From IMG/VR virus record IMGVR_UViG_2711768018_000019: a stretch of DNA of 51,533 nucleotides, one strand, 5' to 3'. The notes beneath the pieces were generated by a model. The model saw only the letters and a program-made list of their open reading frames with translations, ran no database searches and was not told the DNA's origin. This DNA comes from a virus. Taxonomy: Duplodnaviria > Heunggongvirae > Uroviricota > Caudoviricetes. Positions 6,039 to 51,157 of this stretch are shown in pieces (the stretch's first letter is position 1; each line of letters starts with the position of its first letter). The position numbers and the translations under genes were made by a program.

Positions 6039-6871
6039 ACAGTTTAACGGCAAATAACCGTTTGTCGCAACAGCTGGTGGTCAGCGTCGCTGAACACCTG
6101 TTGTTACGGCATGAATGCAGATTACCAAATCACCTGGCTGTAAGTAACCACAGAGAACTTTACCTGACTGTGGGGGGCGAGTTGTGCAGGAACTTAACCG
6201 CTGGTTTCGTGACGGAAGAGGACTTTATGTTCATGTTATTCGTTGGGAGCCAGAAACACAGCGCGTTATCTATCTTCGCAAAGACTACCCGCATGAGTGC
6301 TTTAGTCCTTTGTGGAAATTCAGGCGTGATTTTGTTGAGTGTGAAGGACCACCAGCACATTGATTCTGCCATTCCGGGACGTTACACTGTTCAGGCACCT
6401 TATAAAGCGGGTGCCGGGATTGGCGTCCTGGAATTGATCAAGGCGATATATGACGCGCCAGCGTCTTTTTTATCGTCCGCATTTGCTCACATCAAAGTTA
6501 TGGTGGGCTGGGCGGGGGCATCGAAAGATGCGCCGGTTTCCTTGATCACCGGTTACGCCAACCCCGTTCAGTTCACCACCAGCGAAATTGGCGTTTCCGG
6601 TGGTGGAAGTATTTCACCGATCAAGGAGGCTGCCATCATGGCTACTGTCCCAGCCCTCACTCGTCTGAATGATGAAGACTTACATAAACTCAGTTATGTA
6701 ACAACTGCACTACGTGCTCTGCGCAAGGTAACTCTTTCGGATCCGCAGGCACATCAGGTTCTGGTAGAAACCCTTCTTAACTTGCAAGCTGAACGTATTC
6801 GTCTGGCGGATAAGGCTAATTTTCATATTCACCGTCTCCTGAATATCAGCGGAGGGCATCGTCATGCTTAA
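6035..6871 (+). CDS. Hypothetical protein; ORF may be composite or contain a frameshift
   Basis: 278-aa open frame. A GTG-initiated alternative frame (about 6186-6365, with GGGGGG RBS) encodes a more protein-like peptide, and an internal ATG at 6638 has a strong AAGGAGG RBS. Confidence 0.3.
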   Translation: MNSLTANNRLSQQLVVSVAEHLLLRHECRLPNHLAVSNHRELYLTVGGELCRNLTAGFVTEEDFMFMLFVGSQKHSALSIFAKTTRMSALVLCGNSGVILLSVKDHQHIDSAIPGRYTVQAPYKAGAGIGVLELIKAIYDAPASFLSSAFAHIKVMVGWAGASKDAPVSLITGYANPVQFTTSEIGVSGGGSISPIKEAAIMATVPALTRLNDEDLHKLSYVTTALRALRKVTLSDPQAHQVLVETLLNLQAERIRLADKANFHIHRLLNISGGHRHA

Positions 6872-42397: not shown

Positions 42398-42407
42398 TGG
42401 GGTGAAT

Positions 42408-45400
42408 ATGGCAGTAAAGATTTCAGGTGTACTGAAAGACGGCACAGGAAAACCGGTACAGAACTGCACAATCCAGCTGAAAGCAAAACGTAACAGCACC
42501 ACGGTGGTGGTGAACACGCTGGCCTCAGAAAATCCGGATGAAGCCGGGCGTTACAGCATGGACGTTGAGTACGGGCAGTACAGCGTTATTCTGTTGGTGG
42601 AGGGATTCCCGCCGTCACATGCCGGGACCATCACCGTGTATGAAGATTCCCGACCCGGTACGCTGAATGATTTTCTCGGTGCCATGACGGAGGATGATGC
42701 CCGTCCTGAGGCACTGCGCCGCTTTGAACTGATGGTGGAAGAGGTGGCGCGTAACGCGTCCGCGGTGGCACAGAACACGGCAGCCGCGAAGAAATCAGCC
42801 AGCGATGCCAGCACATCAGCCCGTGAGGCGGCAACCCGTGCGACTGATGCTGCAGGCTCAGCACGAGCAGCCAGCACGTCAGCCGGACAGGCCGCTTCGT
42901 CGGCTCAGTCTGCGTCTTCCAGCGCAGGAACGGCATCAGCAAAGGCCACTGAAGCATCAAAAAGTGCTGCCGCTGCAGAGTCCTCAAAAAGCGCGGCGGC
43001 CACCAGTGCCGGTGCGGCGAAAACGTCAGAAACGAATGCGGCAGCGTCACAACAATCAGCTGCCACTTCTGCATCCACCGCGACCACGAAAGCGTCAGAA
43101 GCAGCCACCTCAGCCAGAGATGCGTCGGCTTCAAAAGAGGCGGCAAAATTATCAGAAACGAGCGCAGCTTCGAGCGCCAGTAATGCCGCTTCCTCGGCAA
43201 CGGCGGCAGGAAATTCCGCGAAGGCGGCAAAGACGTCTGAGACAAACGCTAAGTCCTCTGAAACGGCAGCAGCACAGAGTGCCTCCGCAGCAGCAGGCTC
43301 AAAAACAGCGGCTGCGTCGTCTGCCAGTGCAGCGTCAACAAGTGCCGGGCAGGCCTCAGCCAGTGCTAGCGCCGCCGGAAAATCGGCAGAAAGCGCCGCA
43401 TCGTCCGCTTCAACAGCCACAACGAAGGCTGGCGAAGCCACTGAACAGGCCAGTGCAGCAGCGAGGTCTGCTTCCGCAGCGAAGACATCGGAGACGAACG
43501 CGAAAGCGTCGGAGACCAGCGCAGAATCCTCAAAAACGGCTGCCGCATCGTCCGCCAGTTCGGCGGCGTCATCGGCATCATCGGCGTCTGCTTCAAAAGA
43601 TGAGGCGACCAGACAAGCGTCCGCAGCGAAGGGCAGCGCCACGACAGCATCCACGAAGGCGACAGAGGCTGCTGGCAGTGCGACGGCGGCAGCACAGAGC
43701 AAAAGTACGGCGGAATCCGCGGCAACGCGCGCCGAGACAGCGGCAAAACGTGCAGAGGATATTGCATCCGCCGTGGCGCTTGAGGATGCGAGCACGACGA
43801 AAAAGGGGATAGTACAGCTCAGTAGTGCGACTAATAGCACGTCTGAAACGCTGGCGGCAACGCCAAAGGCAGTAAAAGCAGCCAATGACAATGCTGAGAA
43901 ACGTCTGCAGAAAGACCAGAACGGCGCTGATATACCCGATAAGGGACGCTTCCTGAACAACATTAACGCGGTCAGTAAAACAGACTTTGCTGATAAGCGT
44001 GGTATGCGTTATGTGCGGGTTAACGCTCCTGCAGGTGCAACATCTGGAAAATATTACCCTGTTGTTGTTATGCGTTCTGCTGGCTCAGTAAGCGAACTGG
44101 CATCAAGGGTCATTATCACCACGGCAACGCGAATCGCAGGCGATCCGATGAATAACTGCGAGTTTAACGGATTTGTTATGCCTGGTGGCTGGACTGACAG
44201 GGGGCGTTATGCTTATGGAATGTTCTGGCAATATCAAAACAATGAACGAGCCATCCACTCAATAATGATGAGTAATAAGGGCGATGATTTGCGCTCTGTG
44301 TTCTATGTTGATGGCGCTGCTTTCCCTGTTTTTGCGTTTCTCGAAGATGGCCTGTCAATATCCGCACCTGGTGCTGATCTCGTTGTTAATGATACGACCT
44401 ATAAGTTTGGGGCAACAAATCCGGCGACTGAATGTATCGCGGCGGACGTTATCCTTGATTTTAAGAGTGGGCGTGGTTTTTATGAGTCTCATTCGTTAAT
44501 CGTTAACGATAACTTGTCGTGCAAAAAACTTTTTGCCACAGACGAAATTGTAGCGCGTGGTGGTAATCAGATTCGAATGATAGGTGGGGAGTATGGTGCA
44601 TTATGGCGTAATGATGGCGCTAAAACTTACCTGCTGCTTACCAATCAAGGTGATGTTTATGGTGGCTGGAATACATTAAGACCGTTTGTTATTGATAACG
44701 CAACCGGCGAACTGGTTATTGGAACCAAACTGTCTGCAAGTCTGAACGGTAACGCATTGACAGCAACAAAGCTGCAAACGCCAAGACTGGTTTCTGGTGT
44801 TGAGTTTGATGGTTCCAAAGATATTACTTTAACCGCCGCGCATGTGGCTGCTTTTGCCAGAAGGGCAACGGATACATATGCCGATGCGGATGGTGGCGTT
44901 CCATGGAATGCCGAATCAGGCGCTTACAATGTCACCCGCTCTGGCAACAGCTATATTCTGGTTAACTTCTATACCGGAGTCGGAAGTTGCCGGACCTTGC
45001 AGATGAAGGCGCATTACAGAAATGGTGGTCTGTTCTACCGTTCTTCAAGAGACGGTTATGGTTTTGAGGAAGACTGGGCAGAAGTTTATACCTCGAAAAA
45101 TCTTCCACCAGAAAGCTACCCAGTCGGTGCACCAATCCCGTGGCCATCAGATACCGTTCCGTCTGGTTATGCCCTGATGCAGGGACAGACTTTTGACAAA
45201 TCTGCTTACCCGAAACTTGCAGCCGTTTATCCGTCAGGTGTGATCCCTGATATGCGTGGCTGGACGATTAAGGGCAAACCTGCCAGTGGTCGGGCCGTAT
45301 TGTCTCAGGAACAGGACGGCATTAAATCGCATACCCACAGCGCCAGCGCATCCAGTACGGATTTGGGGACGAAAACCACATCGTCGTTTGATTACGGCAC

Positions 45401-45806
45401 TAAATCCACGAATAACACTGGTGCGCATACCCATAGTTTAAGTGGCAGCACGAATGCAGCTGGTAATCACAGCCATAGAGATGGCCGTCGATTTAACCCC
45501 AGTGTTTTTAAAGATACTTATCAATATGGTTATACAAGCTCAGGTCAAAATACCTGGGGTGTACAAGGCTCAGTAGGTATGTCTACGGGGTGGTTAGCGA
45601 ATACCAGTACAGATGGTAATCATAGCCACTCACTGTCCGGCACAGCAGCATCTGCAGGTGCACACGCGCATACTGTCGGTATTGGTGCTCATACGCACTC
45701 CGTTGCGATTGGTTCACATGGACATACCATCACCGTTAACGCTGCGGGTAACGCGGAAAACACCGTCAAAAACATCGCATTTAACTATATTGTGAGGCTT
45801 GCATAA
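42408..45806 (+). CDS. stf: Side tail fibre protein Stf
   Basis: About 1130 aa. [79 protein letters not shown] matches K-12 StfR-type fibres as I recall them; long Ala/Ser/Thr repeat region; C-terminal His-rich repeats (GAHTHS, GNHSHS). Confidence 0.85.
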
Positions 45807-46390
45807 TGGCATTCAGAATGAGTGAACAACCACGGACCATAAAAATTTATAATCTGCTGACCGGAACTAATGAATTTATTGGTGAAGGTGACGCATATAT
45901 TCCGCCTCATACAGGTCTGCCAGCAAACAGTACCTATATTGCACCGCCAGATATTCCGGCTGGCTTTGTGGCTGTTTTCAACAGTGATGAGGCATCGTGG
46001 CATCTCGTTGAAGACCATCGGGGTAAAACGGTTTATGACGTAGCGTCAGGGGACGCGTTATTTATTTCTGAACTCGGTCCGTTACCGGAAAATGTTACCT
46101 GGTTATCCCCGGAAGGGGAGTTTCAGAAGTGGAACGGCACAGCCTGGGTGAAGGATACGGAAGCAGAAAAACTGTTCCGGATCCGGGAGGCGGAAGAAAC
46201 AAAAAACAGCCTGATGCAGGTAGCCAGTGAGCATATAGCGCCACTTCAGGATGCTGTAGATCTGGAGATCGCAACGGAGGAAGAAAACTCGTTGCTGGAA
46301 GCCTGGAAGAAGTATCGGGTGTTGCTGAACCGTGTTGATACATCAACTGCACCTGATATTGAGTGGCCTGCGGTCCCTGTTATGGAGTAA
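45806..46390 (+). CDS. tfa: Tail fibre assembly protein Tfa
   Basis: 194 aa directly after stf; the N-terminal [58 protein letters not shown] is characteristic of the Tfa family. Confidence 0.8.
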
Positions 46391-46502
46391 TCGTTTTGTG
46401 ATATGCCGCAGCAACTTGTCATGGCAGGATACTGCGGCTGATTTGTGAATTTAAATAGTGTGTTTATTGCTTTATATATAAAGGATTTAATGGATTACAT
46501 AT

Positions 46503-47873
46503 CTATGATATCCCTGAAATGTCCTCTTCAAGCTCTTTTACTGATTTCGCAATTTTAAATTTAAATTTTCTCTCTATTTCACTATTGCTAAGTTTTTTTT
46601 CATTCTCTTTCCCTATCCACATAGAAACAATTTCTCGTTTCTGAGATATATGTAGATTGTCAAAGTTAGGTATGTATTTAAAAGTCTCCGCTCTACCCCT
46701 GCGGAGTTCATAGAAAGTTTTAATCAAAGACTTTGGTTTTATTTCTGATGAAAGGCCGAATCGGCGGATAAGATTATTGATCGTATGATTAACAGCTCGA
46801 AGTTGAGCTGTTGACGTTATTTGTGAGAAGTACGATACCCATCCCAATCGTTTACCTTCAAACACACATCCCGTAATTCTAAGATTTAGTTTCCACTGAC
46901 AATATGCAACAGCTCGTTCTTTATCGCGCTTATTTTTAGCTTGTAGTAGAGCGTGTCTATATGCAGTAAAAATTTTTGCTAAGGATGACTCAAATCTAAG
47001 AATGCTCTCATGTTTTATCAATAATTCTCGATTTTTTATGTGGTAGCCCAAAAAGTTGAAACTTTCATCCAAGCTGCCTACTTTGGATTTTGAGTTCTCT
47101 TCATTTAATGGATGTGGGTTTAAATTTAATGATTGAAGCTTATCAATGATATGAGAAGCTATTTTTGTTGCTTGATATTTTGGTGTTAAAATAAGAATGT
47201 CATCAACGTATCGCATGTACCATATGTCATGCATTTTATTGATTTCATCATCGAAATTAGATAGTGATATTTCAGCTAAAATGTTTGATATCGCTAATCC
47301 CTGAGGTACTCCTCTGGTATTATTAGGGATACCTTTGCTTCCTGTGGTTCCACTTACAGTAGGCACGATTAATGATGATGTTATTAACTGTCTAATTTCT
47401 TTTTTTCTAATTTTATTTTTTATTGCATTAATTATCAATTTATGTTCAATTGAAGGATAGAAACTTTTAAGATCTATTTTTGCATATTCAGCATATAGAC
47501 TGTTGTTTAATGCTTCTTTCAATGAGTCAATTACTGTATGTGGTAGTTTTAATCTGGACTTAGGATATATTTCCGTAAGGCATTCACAGAGAGCTCTAAG
47601 AGTAATTCTGTCCCTAGCAGTTGGTATGGAAATCTGTCTGGGTGTAGAGTTAGCGCCTTTAGATATTAATTTTTCTTTATATGCTGTAAATTTGTAATTG
47701 CCAGAATTAACCTTTTCAAAAATGAAAGTGATCTCATTTTTTATTGTCAAATCAAGTTTTGATGGGCGAATCCGATCTATGCCAATCGCTCCTGATTCTT
47801 TGATTTTTTCAGAGTATACTTTTAGAAGATTTTTTTTCGAGAATGACTTTTTAAAAATTCTGCTTGCAGTCAT
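46503..47873 (-). CDS. Reverse transcriptase (defence-associated, retron/UG/Abi-like; unclassified)
   Basis: 456 aa from the ATG at 47873..47871. RT motifs: RQISIPTARDRI (motif 1), AKIDLKSFYPSI (motif 2), RGVPQGLAISNILAEI (QG motif), YMRYVDDILIL (YxDD active site), FLGYHI (thumb). AT-rich; start overlaps the upstream gene's 3' end. Confidence 0.8.
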   Translation of the reverse strand: MTASRIFKKSFSKKNLLKVYSEKIKESGAIGIDRIRPSKLDLTIKNEITFIFEKVNSGNYKFTAYKEKLISKGANSTPRQISIPTARDRITLRALCECLTEIYPKSRLKLPHTVIDSLKEALNNSLYAEYAKIDLKSFYPSIEHKLIINAIKNKIRKKEIRQLITSSLIVPTVSGTTGSKGIPNNTRGVPQGLAISNILAEISLSNFDDEINKMHDIWYMRYVDDILILTPKYQATKIASHIIDKLQSLNLNPHPLNEENSKSKVGSLDESFNFLGYHIKNRELLIKHESILRFESSLAKIFTAYRHALLQAKNKRDKERAVAYCQWKLNLRITGCVFEGKRLGWVSYFSQITSTAQLRAVNHTINNLIRRFGLSSEIKPKSLIKTFYELRRGRAETFKYIPNFDNLHISQKREIVSMWIGKENEKKLSNSEIERKFKFKIAKSVKELEEDISGIS

Positions 47874-48402
47874 AGTCAATCCAAAGATATATTAATGGGA
47901 GTATATAAAGTGCGGCAGTAATAAATATTCGAAGTAATATCCATAAAATAACAATTATTTTTTCTTTTTGTGTGGGGATCCTCGTCTTAAGTCCAACTTG
48001 AGTTACCCTTGAAATTTTATCATCTATGTCACGGTGATTCTCAACCTCATTGAGCAAATTAAAATATTTTTCTTTCTGTTCAAGAGATAACTGTTGACTG
48101 GTGGTAATGTCAAAATAGAGTCGCTGTAGTGCAATATAATTCCTTCTCATGGCTATTGCTCGACCACGAAAATCTAGGTTAGATACGATCAGAGAAATAC
48201 CCAGTAGAGCCACTGAAAGTATCGCCGCAACGACATCTGTATTATCTCCTAGAACCTTTGGAAATCGCAACGTTACAATTGAAAGTACCGCACTCAATAT
48301 AGCATACCAAACGAGGATAAATTGAGAGTGTTTTTCAAGCCATTCTAGTCGATGGTGCGCTTGGATACGTGCTTTATATGTAAACCAAATATTGTCATGC
48401 AT
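47851..48402 (-). CDS. Small multi-TM membrane protein (SLATT-like candidate effector) co-transcribed with the RT
   Basis: 183 aa, RBS aagga. Two adjacent TM helices (FILVWYAILSAVLSIVTL; VVAAILSVALLGISLIVS) and a third at the C-terminus (IIVILWILLRIFITAALYILPLIYLW). Its 3' end overlaps the RT start by about 23 nt. Confidence 0.6.
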   Translation of the reverse strand: MHDNIWFTYKARIQAHHRLEWLEKHSQFILVWYAILSAVLSIVTLRFPKVLGDNTDVVAAILSVALLGISLIVSNLDFRGRAIAMRRNYIALQRLYFDITTSQQLSLEQKEKYFNLLNEVENHRDIDDKISRVTQVGLKTRIPTQKEKIIVILWILLRIFITAALYILPLIYLWIDYDCKQNF

Positions 48403-48624
48403 AAAAGATCCTTTTTAAAAGCGGAAGGGGCAGGATATATTGGAACCGTTGAACATCCTGCCCGGCAGGATCAGTGAGCATAAGCTCAACAGTAAAATAT
48501 TACTGTTCATTATCAGAGCCGCCCTTGCATGCGCAAGAGGAAAAACCTGCCCCATCCCTTTGAATTATTACAATTTAATGATCTTAAAGTCAATACAAGT
48601 GAATGGTGTCCAGAGATGATGAAC
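48403..48624 (-). ncRNA. Candidate structured ncRNA (retron msr/msd-like or DRT-type) upstream of the membrane-protein/RT operon
   Basis: On the minus strand: promoter-like -35 TTGACT (48593..48588) and -10 TAATAA (48570..48565), then inverted repeats GGATGGGGCAGG (48557..48546) and CCTGCCCCTTCC (48434..48423), 11/12 complementary, enclosing three hairpins. No ORF. Confidence 0.35.
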
Positions 48625-48873
48625 TTAATGAACAAACCACTCGTCAGCAGACTCCCAGGTATCTTTCAGAGTCTCCTGAACAAAAGTTTTAGCTGAATCT
48701 TTATCAGCGGTGCGCGTAACAGAAAGGCCATCGTTGCTGGTGGCTTTTACGATCACTTCTACATCGTCATAACGTTTACTGATGCGTCGGGTTAATTCTT
48801 CCTTTAACGCATCCACAGCACCGGTTGGCATTTTAGTCATTTTTTCTTTGGCTATGCAGATTTCAATACGCAT
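48625..48873 (-). CDS. dinI: DinI-family damage-inducible protein
   Basis: 82 aa; [11 protein letters not shown] ... [16 protein letters not shown] matches the DinI family. Preceded by two LexA boxes. Confidence 0.75.
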
Positions 48874-48887
48874 AAAAGTCCCCTACA

Positions 48888-48931
48888 CTGTATTTGTATA
48901 CAGTATTATTTTTAACTGTATGGATAAACAG
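48888..48931. promoter_or_regulatory. Two LexA (SOS) boxes in the dinI promoter
   Basis: CTGTatttgtatACAG (48888-48903) and CTGTatggataaACAG (48916-48931), both matching CTGT-N8-ACAG, between the integrase stop and the dinI start. Confidence 0.7.
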
Positions 48932-48933
48932 TG

Positions 48934-50031
48934 TCAAGAGGTCTTATTTCTGCTCCTTTGGAGTTCTTCAAAACGATTATGTAAAGATTTCGGATACAGT
49001 TCGGTATATACCTGCCATAGCACGTTTAATGAACGATGCCCTGTAACCTGAGCGACTTCCTCAATACTAAAACCAGCCTCAAATAAGCGACTTGCCCCTT
49101 CTCTACGCAAATCATGGTATCTCAGATCTTTAATACCTAATTTGCTTCTTACCCTCTGAAATCCTGCGGTAACAGAAGTGCTGTTATATGGAAAAATGAA
49201 TTCTGATTTTTTGGGTTGTCGCTGGACGATATCCCAGGCTTCCCCAAGCAAGGCAACTTTCATATGGTTGCCTTCCTTTTTACGTGGATCTTTCCTGTCT
49301 CTTACTAGTATAGATTTTTGTTCCTGGTCGAGATCTTCCCATCGTAACCGGCATACTTCTCCGATTCGCATACAGGACCACACAGAAAATTTGAGGATAT
49401 CAACGAACGGAATTTTTGAGCATTTATGAGTAGATCGTTGTTGAAGGCCTTCAATGAGCATGTTCAGTTCATCAGATGCTGGTCTACGATTACGACGGTT
49501 TGATTTACCAATCAAACCGAGTTTAAGTAGATATGGACGAGCGCTTTTCGCCGGGTTTGATGTGTAATTGATTCCGTATACAGGTTTTGCCGCATCCAGA
49601 ACACTGCCAAGATAACTAACATCGTGGCTGACTGTTGCTGGGCCTGCACCAGCGTTGTTTCTTAGCCTGCAATGTTCAATTACGTCATTTTCTGTCAGTT
49701 CAGATAGTTTGATCGCGGAGATGTCACTATCCATAAGCAGTTCCAGCACATATCTTTTAGTACGGCCTGCTTTACCTCCGGCATTTGGGTCATTTAAATA
49801 TTTGTGTAGTAAGTCACGGACTGTAAGTCCGTCAACAGCATTTGATGATGGAATGCCATATAGATCTAATTCCATCACTTTCTGTGCGCCCCATGTTTTG
49901 GCATGAGCATGTTTAGGGAATGTTTTGCTTTCCCTGTAAGTGATAACACCTTTTTCTTTGATAATCACATTACAGCGATAGCGTGGTGTGCCATCGGATT
50001 TTAGTCGTTTCTCTATGTTATAGTACGCCAT
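48934..50031 (-). CDS. int: Tyrosine integrase (DusA-associated family)
   Basis: 365 aa with C-terminal catalytic-domain motifs (HDLRREGASRL, VTGHRSLNVLWQVY); lies immediately beside and divergent from dusA. Confidence 0.85.
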   Translation of the reverse strand: MAYYNIEKRLKSDGTPRYRCNVIIKEKGVITYRESKTFPKHAHAKTWGAQKVMELDLYGIPSSNAVDGLTVRDLLHKYLNDPNAGGKAGRTKRYVLELLMDSDISAIKLSELTENDVIEHCRLRNNAGAGPATVSHDVSYLGSVLDAAKPVYGINYTSNPAKSARPYLLKLGLIGKSNRRNRRPASDELNMLIEGLQQRSTHKCSKIPFVDILKFSVWSCMRIGEVCRLRWEDLDQEQKSILVRDRKDPRKKEGNHMKVALLGEAWDIVQRQPKKSEFIFPYNSTSVTAGFQRVRSKLGIKDLRYHDLRREGASRLFEAGFSIEEVAQVTGHRSLNVLWQVYTELYPKSLHNRFEELQRSRNKTS

Positions 50032-50119
50032 TACACGACCTCGTTATTTCGGGTTCCCATAAAGCGTGGGAACCTGTGCGGGAACCTAACGCGAGAAAAA
50101 TAGCCTGAAATGTTCAAAA

Positions 50120-51157
50120 ATGCACGATAATCCTGAAACACAGAAAACTAATCAAACCAGCGTGATGCCTGAAAAAACTGGCGCTTACTGGAGTTCTCGG
50201 TTTAGCATTGCTCCTATGCTCGACTGGACGGACAGACATTGCCGCTATTTCTTGCGTCTGCTTTCCCGCAATACGTTGCTGTATACCGAAATGGTGACCA
50301 CAGGGGCGATTATTCACGGTAAAGGTGATTACCTGGCGTACAGTGAAGAAGAACATCCGGTAGCGTTGCAACTCGGCGGTAGCGATCCGGCGGCGCTGGC
50401 ACAGTGTGCGAAGCTGGCAGAAGCGCGTGGATATGATGAGATCAACCTGAATGTCGGCTGCCCGTCTGACCGGGTGCAGAACGGCATGTTTGGTGCGTGT
50501 CTGATGGGTAATGCGCAGCTGGTTGCCGACTGCGTGAAAGCGATGCGCGATGTGGTGTCGATTCCAGTGACGGTGAAAACGCGTATTGGCATCGATGACC
50601 AGGACAGCTATGAATTTCTCTGCGATTTCATCAACACCGTTTCCGGCAAAGGCGAGTGTGAGATGTTTATCATCCACGCACGTAAAGCCTGGCTTTCGGG
50701 GTTAAGCCCGAAAGAAAACCGTGAAATCCCGCCACTCGATTATCCGCGTGTGTATCAACTGAAGCGTGACTTTCCGCATCTGACAATGTCGATTAACGGT
50801 GGTATCAAGTCGCTGGAAGAGGCCAAAGCACACCTGCAACATATGGATGGCGTGATGGTCGGGCGCGAGGCGTATCAGAATCCGGGTATTCTGGCGGCGG
50901 TAGACCGGGAGATCTTTGGTTCCTCGGATACCGATGCCGATCCGGTGGCGGTAGTGCGCGCCATGTATCCGTACATTGAGCGTGAACTCAGCCAGGGGAC
51001 GTATCTCGGCCATATTACCCGGCATATGTTGGGCTTGTTCCAGGGTATTCCTGGCGCGCGGCAGTGGCGGCGTTATTTAAGTGAAAATGCCCATAAAGCG
51101 GGTGCAGACATTAATGTGCTGGAACACGCGCTCAAACTGGTGGCGGATAAGCGTTAA
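50120..51157 (+). CDS. dusA: tRNA-dihydrouridine synthase A
   Basis: 345 aa; TIM-barrel Dus family ([22 protein letters not shown] ... NLNVGCPS ... catalytic Cys region). The first ~25 codons are probably prophage-derived. Confidence 0.9.

Follow-up and report, generated by a model that had tools for sequence, protein, structure and literature searches.

Reverse transcriptases (RTs) of the UG17 group belong to DRT10, a defence system with three parts, namely ncRNA, SLATT and RT (Tang et al., 2025, PMC12632851; Sanchez-Nieto et al., 2026, 10.64898/2026.04.29.721553). In its best-studied member, Eco3DRT10, RIP-seq found a 137-nt RNA upstream of SLATT, and a covariance model described it as a large closing stem with smaller stem-loops (Tang et al., 2025). 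The Eco3 RT, a protein of 456 amino acids, primes from its C-terminal Ser456 and produces kilobase-length tandem repeats of GAATCATTG by copying CAAUGAUUC (nt 107-115) and realigning on the downstream CAAU (nt 116-119), the A-B-A' rule (Tang et al., 2025; Ramirez et al., 2026, 10.64898/2026.06.29.735271). Cryo-EM of Eco3 resolved two RTs on one RNA, with a Loop A of 12 nt (including U43 and G44) and a Loop B of 19 nt; SL5 sets the 5' template boundary, with a G86-G104 Hoogsteen pair contacted by R371, and Loop A yields only an abortive product of about 10 nt (Ramirez et al., 2026).

A second system is UG17-A of Escherichia sp. E3659, whose RNA an independent group validated by Northern blot and primer extension; they reported that the RNA depends on SL1 and acts in trans, and that SbcB and a phage SSB-like protein control the system (Sanchez-Nieto et al., 2026). 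For Eco1-3 DRT10 and E3659, a discrete RNA bound by the RT, a tandem-repeat cDNA linked to protein and a phage defence phenotype that needs all three parts have been demonstrated, and the two published studies disagree on whether the cDNA rises or falls on infection (Tang et al., 2025; Sanchez-Nieto et al., 2026).

We analysed the 222-nt spacer between dinI and a SLATT gene (48403-48624) in the window, which here means the whole stretch of 51,533 nt. The minus strand of this spacer very probably encodes the 137-nt ncRNA of a DRT10 (UG17) anti-phage system, borne by a prophage that lies next to dusA (Table 1). Gene families, RNA structure with its covariation, template pattern, promoter and colinearity with Eco3 were all observed at the window locus itself. 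The sequence-only reading had proposed a structured RNA upstream of the RT operon, serving as template or scaffold of the adjacent RT, and the data bear this core out: the 137-nt element, a structured ncRNA of the DRT type, lies upstream of a SLATT gene and a UG17 RT gene, and a DRT10 ncRNA has been shown experimentally in the same position (Tang et al., 2025; Sanchez-Nieto et al., 2026). The family was described in 2025-2026, and the locus stands so close to its best-studied member, as a natural allele, that it represents a variant of a known system and no new kind of element; its novelty is modest and confined to a natural 2-nt template allele.

Table 1. Features of the DRT10 locus in the window (nt, position in the 137-nt RNA, with nt 1 at 48557)
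Feature	Position	Strand	Description	Basis or remark
Sigma-70-type promoter of the ncRNA	48564..48593	-	-35 TTGACT (48593-48588), 18-nt spacer with TG, -10 AATAAT (48569-48564)	
DRT10 (UG17) ncRNA, Eco3-like	48421..48557	-	137 nt	Fold, covariation, Eco3 colinearity
SL1 5' arm	48546..48557	-	nt 1-12, GGAUGGGGCAGG	9 of 12 SL1 pairs changed on both sides in homologues
SL2	48519..48541	-	nt 17-39, 9 pairs and a one-base bulge, loop GCAU	Covariation
Loop A	48508..48518	-	nt 40-50, CUCUGAUAAUG, includes U43 and G44	Eco3 Loop A initiation site
SL3	48488..48507	-	nt 51-70, AACAGUAA-UAUU-UUACUGUU	Compensatory changes in 4 of 7 pairs
SL4	48476..48487	-	nt 71-82, GAGC-UUAU-GCUC	Covariation, pair 72-81 AU 22 : GC 18
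SL5, template-boundary stem	48455..48471	-	nt 87-103, flanked by G86 and G104	Covariation; role from Eco3
Loop B, template loop	48435..48453	-	nt 105-123, 19 nt, GUUCAACGGUUCCAAUAUAU	Length and linkers (U105-U106, A120-U123) as in published Eco3
Template A-B	48443..48451	-	nt 107-115, CAA-CGGUUC	Predicted cDNA repeat 5'-GAACCGTTG-3'
Realignment segment A'	48439..48442	-	nt 116-119, CAAU	C116 is the published first templating base; A' role from Eco3
SL1 3' arm	48423..48434	-	nt 124-135, CCUGCCCCUUCC	Pair probabilities 0.95-1.0
SLATT_5 two-transmembrane effector gene	47851..48402	-	183 aa	Pfam, PADLOC and NCBIfam profiles
UG17/DRT10 RT gene	46503..47873	-	456 aa from ATG	PADLOC RT_UG17, full length

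Both proteins downstream of the spacer were assigned by profile searches. The 183-aa protein matches Pfam SLATT_5 (1.3e-28), PADLOC RTasSLATT (1.5e-56) and NCBIfam SLATT_5 (136 bits against a cut-off of 60). The RT, annotated in RefSeq as a coding sequence of 1371 nt, matches PADLOC RT_UG17 over the full profile (1.1e-158, 526.6 bits; residues 3-458 on profile positions 1-429 of 429), and the second-best PADLOC model, Drt3a, reaches 130 bits. The two genes lie in the order SLATT-RT on the same strand and overlap by 23 nt. The RT carries YVDD222, R371, K385, Y388 and a serine, S456, as the last of its 456 residues. Searching the sequences of solved structures with the RT returned no DRT10 entry, the best match being a group II intron RT (4e-14).

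The RNA appears to have its own promoter. A promoter scan found a 10 of 12 match with a TG extension, the -10 element stopping 7 nt short of the first G in the terminal repeat, and homologues across clades have either a -35/-10 pair or a -10 of the TAGAAT type at this same spacing from SL1. The predicted start coincides with position 1 of the published 137-nt Eco3 RNA. Between the end of the RNA and the SLATT start codon, 18 nt downstream, no terminator was found, nor did a consensus scan find one after the RT gene; a tRNA scan found no tRNA.

Downstream of this start, the minus strand is bounded by a terminal repeat, GGATGGGGCAGG and CCTGCCCCTTCC, which occupies the two SL1 arms with 111 nt between, is complementary at 11 of 12 positions and has one U-U mismatch. 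Thus, the 12-nt flanking inverted repeats that the sequence-only reading had described, about 110 nt apart, and the sigma-70-like promoter that it had placed to start transcription at the first repeat, were both found. Its three hairpins are likewise present, at 48537-48524 and at the positions of SL3 and SL5, but it had missed a fourth one (SL4), and the first hairpin is longer than stated, extending over the whole of SL2. On its own, the 11 of 12 repeat is weak evidence, as a repeat at least as good arose in 4.6% of 500 dinucleotide shuffles. The fold as a whole is not due to chance, with a z-score of −3.8 when all 222 nt are folded and of −5.0 for the 137-nt core, and the minimum free energy (MFE) structure of the 137 nt alone consists of SL1 and four hairpins, which is the family consensus. 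The GC contents of SL1 (75%) and SL3 (25%) are the same as those of the published Eco3 stems.

Two alternative folds were considered and rejected. If flanking sequence is included in the folding of the 222-nt spacer, the MFE structure pairs GGCAGG with an SL5 arm and SL1 is not formed; however, folded by itself, the 137-nt RNA adopts the consensus, its SL1 pairs having probabilities of at least 0.95, and the sequences of most homologues do not permit the alternative. A 9 of 9 pairing of GGGCAGGAU with AUCCUGCCC is lineage-specific and has a probability of about 0 in the 137-nt RNA. Both arise from a likeness between the arms of SL5 (AUCCUGC/GCAGGAU) and SL1 (GGCAGG/CCUGCC) in the window lineage, which brings together 48428-48436 with 48455-48463 and 48546-48551 with 48464-48469, and therefore accounts for the 9 of 9 pairing as well as for the MFE shift when flanks are included.

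Folding and covariance analysis across homologous loci, which the sequence-only reading had named as a check, supports the consensus fold. Protein-guided scans yielded 99 loci, and two annotated E. coli regions brought the set to 101, with RT identities to the window of 39 to 100%; they come from Escherichia, Xenorhabdus, Photorhabdus, Buttiauxella, Pseudomonas, Stutzerimonas, viral contigs and metagenomes. With nhmmer, exactly one copy of the element was found in 81 of the 101 loci, in each case located upstream of SLATT and in the same orientation as the RT gene. Among the 20 loci without a match, 17 have no upstream DNA and three have RT fragments only, so that the element is present in 81 of 81 informative loci. 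The three fragmentary loci (L015, L090 and L097, covering RT residues 300-348, 226-458 and 225-458, respectively) are probably decayed or interrupted DRT10 modules, because they combine RT fragments with the lack of a covariance-model match despite 2.5 kb of upstream DNA.

We aligned the 48 distinct sequences with MAFFT and tested on this alignment a structure written from the window sequence. In total, 96.0% of cells are paired, compared with 47-53% in controls with slid partners, and 21 of the 40 pairs show changes on both sides (188 cells), values that none of 500 shuffles reached. Compensatory pairs occur in every helix (nine in SL1, three in SL2, four in SL3, two in SL4 and three in SL5). 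In SL2, the three apical pairs covary (UA/CG 25:23, GC/AU 25:19) and the basal pairs are invariant. RNAalifold, given no structure, recovered SL1-SL5 with 17 compensatory pairs. A covariance model (R1) derived from this alignment and run on the 51.5-kb window gave a single match, at the position of the ncRNA with 129.5 bits, which is informative only for the absence of other matches, since the window sequence was in the model. The covariation in 48 distinct homologues is decisive that the structure is not due to chance.

With nt 1 placed at 48557, all published Eco3 landmarks match, an identity that rests on about 20 positions rather than on a base-by-base comparison. These landmarks are U15, U62 and U64 (from the Eco3 supplementary legend), U43, G44, G111 and C116, together with G86, G104, U105-U106, C107, A117, U119 and A120-U123; the 4-nt linker between SL1 and SL2 and the 19-nt length of Loop B match as well. 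The locus therefore shares with Eco3DRT10 the layout of promoter, 137-nt ncRNA, SLATT_5 and 456-aa RT, the five stems, the lengths of Loop B and linkers, the landmark nucleotides, and the RT contact and priming residues, as well as the A-B-A' logic, in which nt 107-115 make up the 9-nt unit and nt 116-119 make up A'. The sole differences detectable from the published text are U110C and A112G in the window.

These two differences fall within the template. The template, CAA-CGGUUC-CAA (nt 107-118), begins two nt after SL5. None of the 48 distinct homologues departs from C107-A109 or C116-A118, and the sequence between these two segments varies freely, which is what a realigning template predicts. 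Across these homologues the repeat unit is 9, 10 or 11 nt and lies directly after SL5. Compared with the Eco3 template CAAUGAUUC, the window has C for U at nt 110 and G for A at nt 112 only, and its predicted repeat is therefore GAACCGTTG rather than Eco3's GAATCATTG. The identity between A and A' is 3 nt here (CAA), compared with 4 nt in Eco3, and the fourth position would form a dG:rU wobble; in Eco3, mutagenesis showed that the fourth A/A' position tolerates changes and is dispensable (Tang et al., 2025; Ramirez et al., 2026). In Loop A, no A-B-A' pattern of at least 3 nt was found.

Taken together, a mechanism can be proposed, for which the literature on close homologues supplies that the RNA is expressed and bound by the RT, that synthesis is primed from protein and yields repeats, and that the system defends against phages. 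A sigma-70 promoter of its own, immediately ahead of the SLATT-RT operon, would drive transcription of the RNA. The 5' and 3' ends of the RNA pair as the basal stem SL1 (the 12-nt inverted repeat), and SL2-SL5 and two single-stranded loops complete the fold. By homology with Eco3DRT10, to which the system is nearly identical, one RNA would scaffold two RT monomers. The Loop B monomer would prime DNA synthesis from its own Ser456 hydroxyl, starting opposite C116, copy the 9-nt template C107-C115 (CAACGGUUC) and halt at the SL5 boundary. The 3' end of the nascent DNA would then melt off and re-anneal to the downstream CAA (A', nt 116-118), and repeated cycles, as in telomerase, would build the predicted product, a long protein-linked single-stranded (GAACCGTTG)n whose exact repeat we infer from the template. 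The Loop A monomer would make only a short abortive product.

Alternative to a DRT10 ncRNA, the region had been labelled msr/msd-like in the sequence-only reading, in which case the repeats would be a1/a2, a branching guanosine would prime through its 2'-OH, and an msd hairpin would be copied into multicopy single-stranded DNA. Retrons do resemble this locus in having a structured RNA with inverted repeats at its ends immediately before the RT operon, an effector next to the RT (here a membrane protein, as in some retron types) and an anti-phage role. However, the 11 of 12 repeat alone cannot separate the two, since it corresponds to SL1 of the DRT10 scaffold, and retron msr-msd systems differ in RT clade, in priming chemistry, in template (a hairpin, compared with a loop here) and in product (branched msDNA, compared with a tandem repeat here). 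The RT at this locus belongs to UG17, scores 58.4 bits with NCBIfam retron_St85_RT against a cut-off of 235, and has no retron model among its top 25 PADLOC matches. Further, the internal helices have only 4-9 pairs, leaving no long msd stem; the gene order is ncRNA-effector-RT; and the conserved single-stranded A-B-A' loop together with the C-terminal Ser456 fits protein-primed repeat synthesis, as in Eco3DRT10, where the product is a Ser-primed tandem 9-nt repeat and not msDNA. The retron label is therefore hardly tenable. A further reading takes the element as a cis-acting 5' leader, an attenuator or translational regulator of the SLATT-RT mRNA instead of an RT template. The element ends so close to the SLATT start codon, with no terminator-like site between, that the RNA may be co-transcribed with the operon. 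However, the SLATT ribosome-binding site lies outside SL1 and is left open by the structure, and a regulatory leader does not predict an invariant CAA...CAA with a freely varying spacer. In near-identical systems, moreover, the RNA is RT-bound, templates cDNA and works in trans, and in the UG17-A homologue a deletion mutant regains both cDNA synthesis and defence when the RNA is provided in trans (Sanchez-Nieto et al., 2026). We consider a role as leader only very unlikely.

Coding sequence or chance structure could also be invoked. The statement in the sequence-only reading that the spacer has no ORF needs correction, as mechanical ORFs of 40-59 aa overlap it, for example one of 46 aa at 48415-48555 (-), and the terminal repeat alone could be a product of chance at the shuffle frequency given above. 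However, most homologues have GGAAGG, GAGAGA and similar sequences in place of the ATG of this ORF (GGAUGG), and the lengths of the loop indels are not divisible by three, on which grounds coding potential was rejected. The compensatory substitutions in the stems and the z-score of the core likewise speak against both a small protein-coding gene and a chance fold, so that this explanation is next to impossible.

Within the DRT10 reading, the locus can be further placed among related systems. E3659 UG17-A and Eco1DRT10 share the tripartite ncRNA-SLATT-RT organization, a basal SL1 formed from the RNA ends, tandem-repeat cDNA and control by SbcB (Sanchez-Nieto et al., 2026), but their RNAs have six stem-loops (143 nt in E3659), repeats of 7 or 8 nt and other flanking motifs, Eco1 primes from a tyrosine, and covariance models of these RNAs do not transfer between clades. 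DRT9 (UG28) and DRT2 (UG2) also have Class 2 UG RTs with an upstream structured ncRNA that acts as RT scaffold and as template for repeated DNA synthesis, and DRT9 is, in addition, protein-primed. However, DRT9 copies a poly-U tract into poly-dA, and DRT2 builds a gene by rolling-circle copying of a template of about 120 nt; Loop B contains neither a poly-U template nor a long one. The PADLOC Drt9 model scores 69 bits with the RT, against 527 for UG17, which places the RT outside UG28. Telomerase RNA and TERT work in the same way, with a short template inside the RNA, an alignment segment downstream of it, a stem as template boundary and repeat-addition processivity, whereas DRT10 differs from them in priming from protein rather than from a chromosome end, in its small RT (456 aa), in a 2:1 RT:RNA complex and in its function in immunity. 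The likeness to telomerase is best taken as an analogy and a proposed distant relationship, not as family membership.

Upstream of the ncRNA are dinI and then a tyrosine integrase that abuts dusA, and past the RT gene are tail-fibre assembly and tail-fibre genes; because of these flanking genes, the DRT10 module is regarded as prophage cargo. Over this stretch the window is identical to E. coli O25b:H4 (NZ_CP015085.1), a strain that carries this prophage. A search of a phage genome collection with the module gave no match. A block of dinI, ncRNA, SLATT, RT and tail-fibre genes (window 48934-51157; L100, L101 and L102) is common to prophages at different chromosomal sites, namely dusA in the window, prfC in EC01440 and GPEC1337, and yecD/aspS in strain S8, where dinI is frameshifted. 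Among 5426 complete genomes, 188 carry the RNA gene, 81 at an identity of at least 99% and 107 at 95-99%.

In the RefSeq E. coli genomes that were checked, the RNA gene has no annotation. Rfam 15 was scanned with permissive E-values over 46000-50200 and at the gathering score over the whole window, and neither scan gave a match within 48403-48624 that passed the gathering threshold or had a meaningful E-value. Judged by these scans, Rfam contains no model of the DRT10 ncRNA, and annotation pipelines therefore miss a third of the system. The only Rfam matches in these scans, IS009, C4 and isrK, are all outside the spacer. IS009 matches over its full length at 46149-46347 (+) with 224.6 bits (gathering score 117), and since the match is wholly inside the tail-fibre assembly gene (45806-46390), this 'sRNA' family overlaps coding sequence here. 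The adjacent matches to isrK (64 bits) and C4 antisense RNA (82 bits), at 6395-6583 (+) in the same prophage, are antisense immunity RNAs of the P1/P7 type. The tail-fibre ORF (42402-45806, +; 1134 aa) has a very long low-complexity centre rich in Ala, Ser and Thr, and for this reason many spurious overlapping ORFs occur there on both strands.

The template itself is polymorphic in E. coli. At nt 110 and 112 (about 48447 and 48449 in the window), the window and 14 identical loci carry CAACGGUUC, and in three E. coli loci (L026:1601-1737, L032 and L102:3001-3137) the RNA is that of the window except for U110 and A112, so that their template, CAAUGAUUC, and A', CAAU, are the published Eco3 sequence. 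A third E. coli allele (L049, L101) keeps the window template and has changes in SL1 at nt 12, in the SL2 loop at nt 27 and in the SL5 loop at nt 96. It is conceivable, though in our judgement unlikely, that C110/G112 is a functional allele rather than neutral drift, with near-identical E. coli DRT10 systems deliberately making GAACCGTTG or GAATCATTG repeats. If so, the repeat sequence would matter for SLATT control, for sensitivity to SbcB or for evading phage counter-defence.

The Loop B region also repeats GUUC, at nt 104-107 (48451-48454) and nt 112-115 (48443-48446), 8 nt apart. This GUUC...GUUC overlaps the 9-nt register set by CAA...CAA; it occurs commonly within the Escherichia/Xenorhabdus clade and is absent from the Eco3 allele. 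The 8-nt register could give off-register products if the SL5 boundary leaks, and would be usable only then; it is a possibility that the window allele thereby yields mixed 8- and 9-nt repeats. Either outcome, a functional allele or mixed repeats, would, if true, provide a natural handle on how the cDNA talks to SLATT.

The locus thus offers a clean and intact natural example of DRT10, a bacterial RT system proposed to be related to telomerase, carried as E. coli prophage cargo between dinI and tail-fibre genes. Its natural template alleles predict different repeats, and could serve to probe whether immunity depends on the sequence of the repeat.
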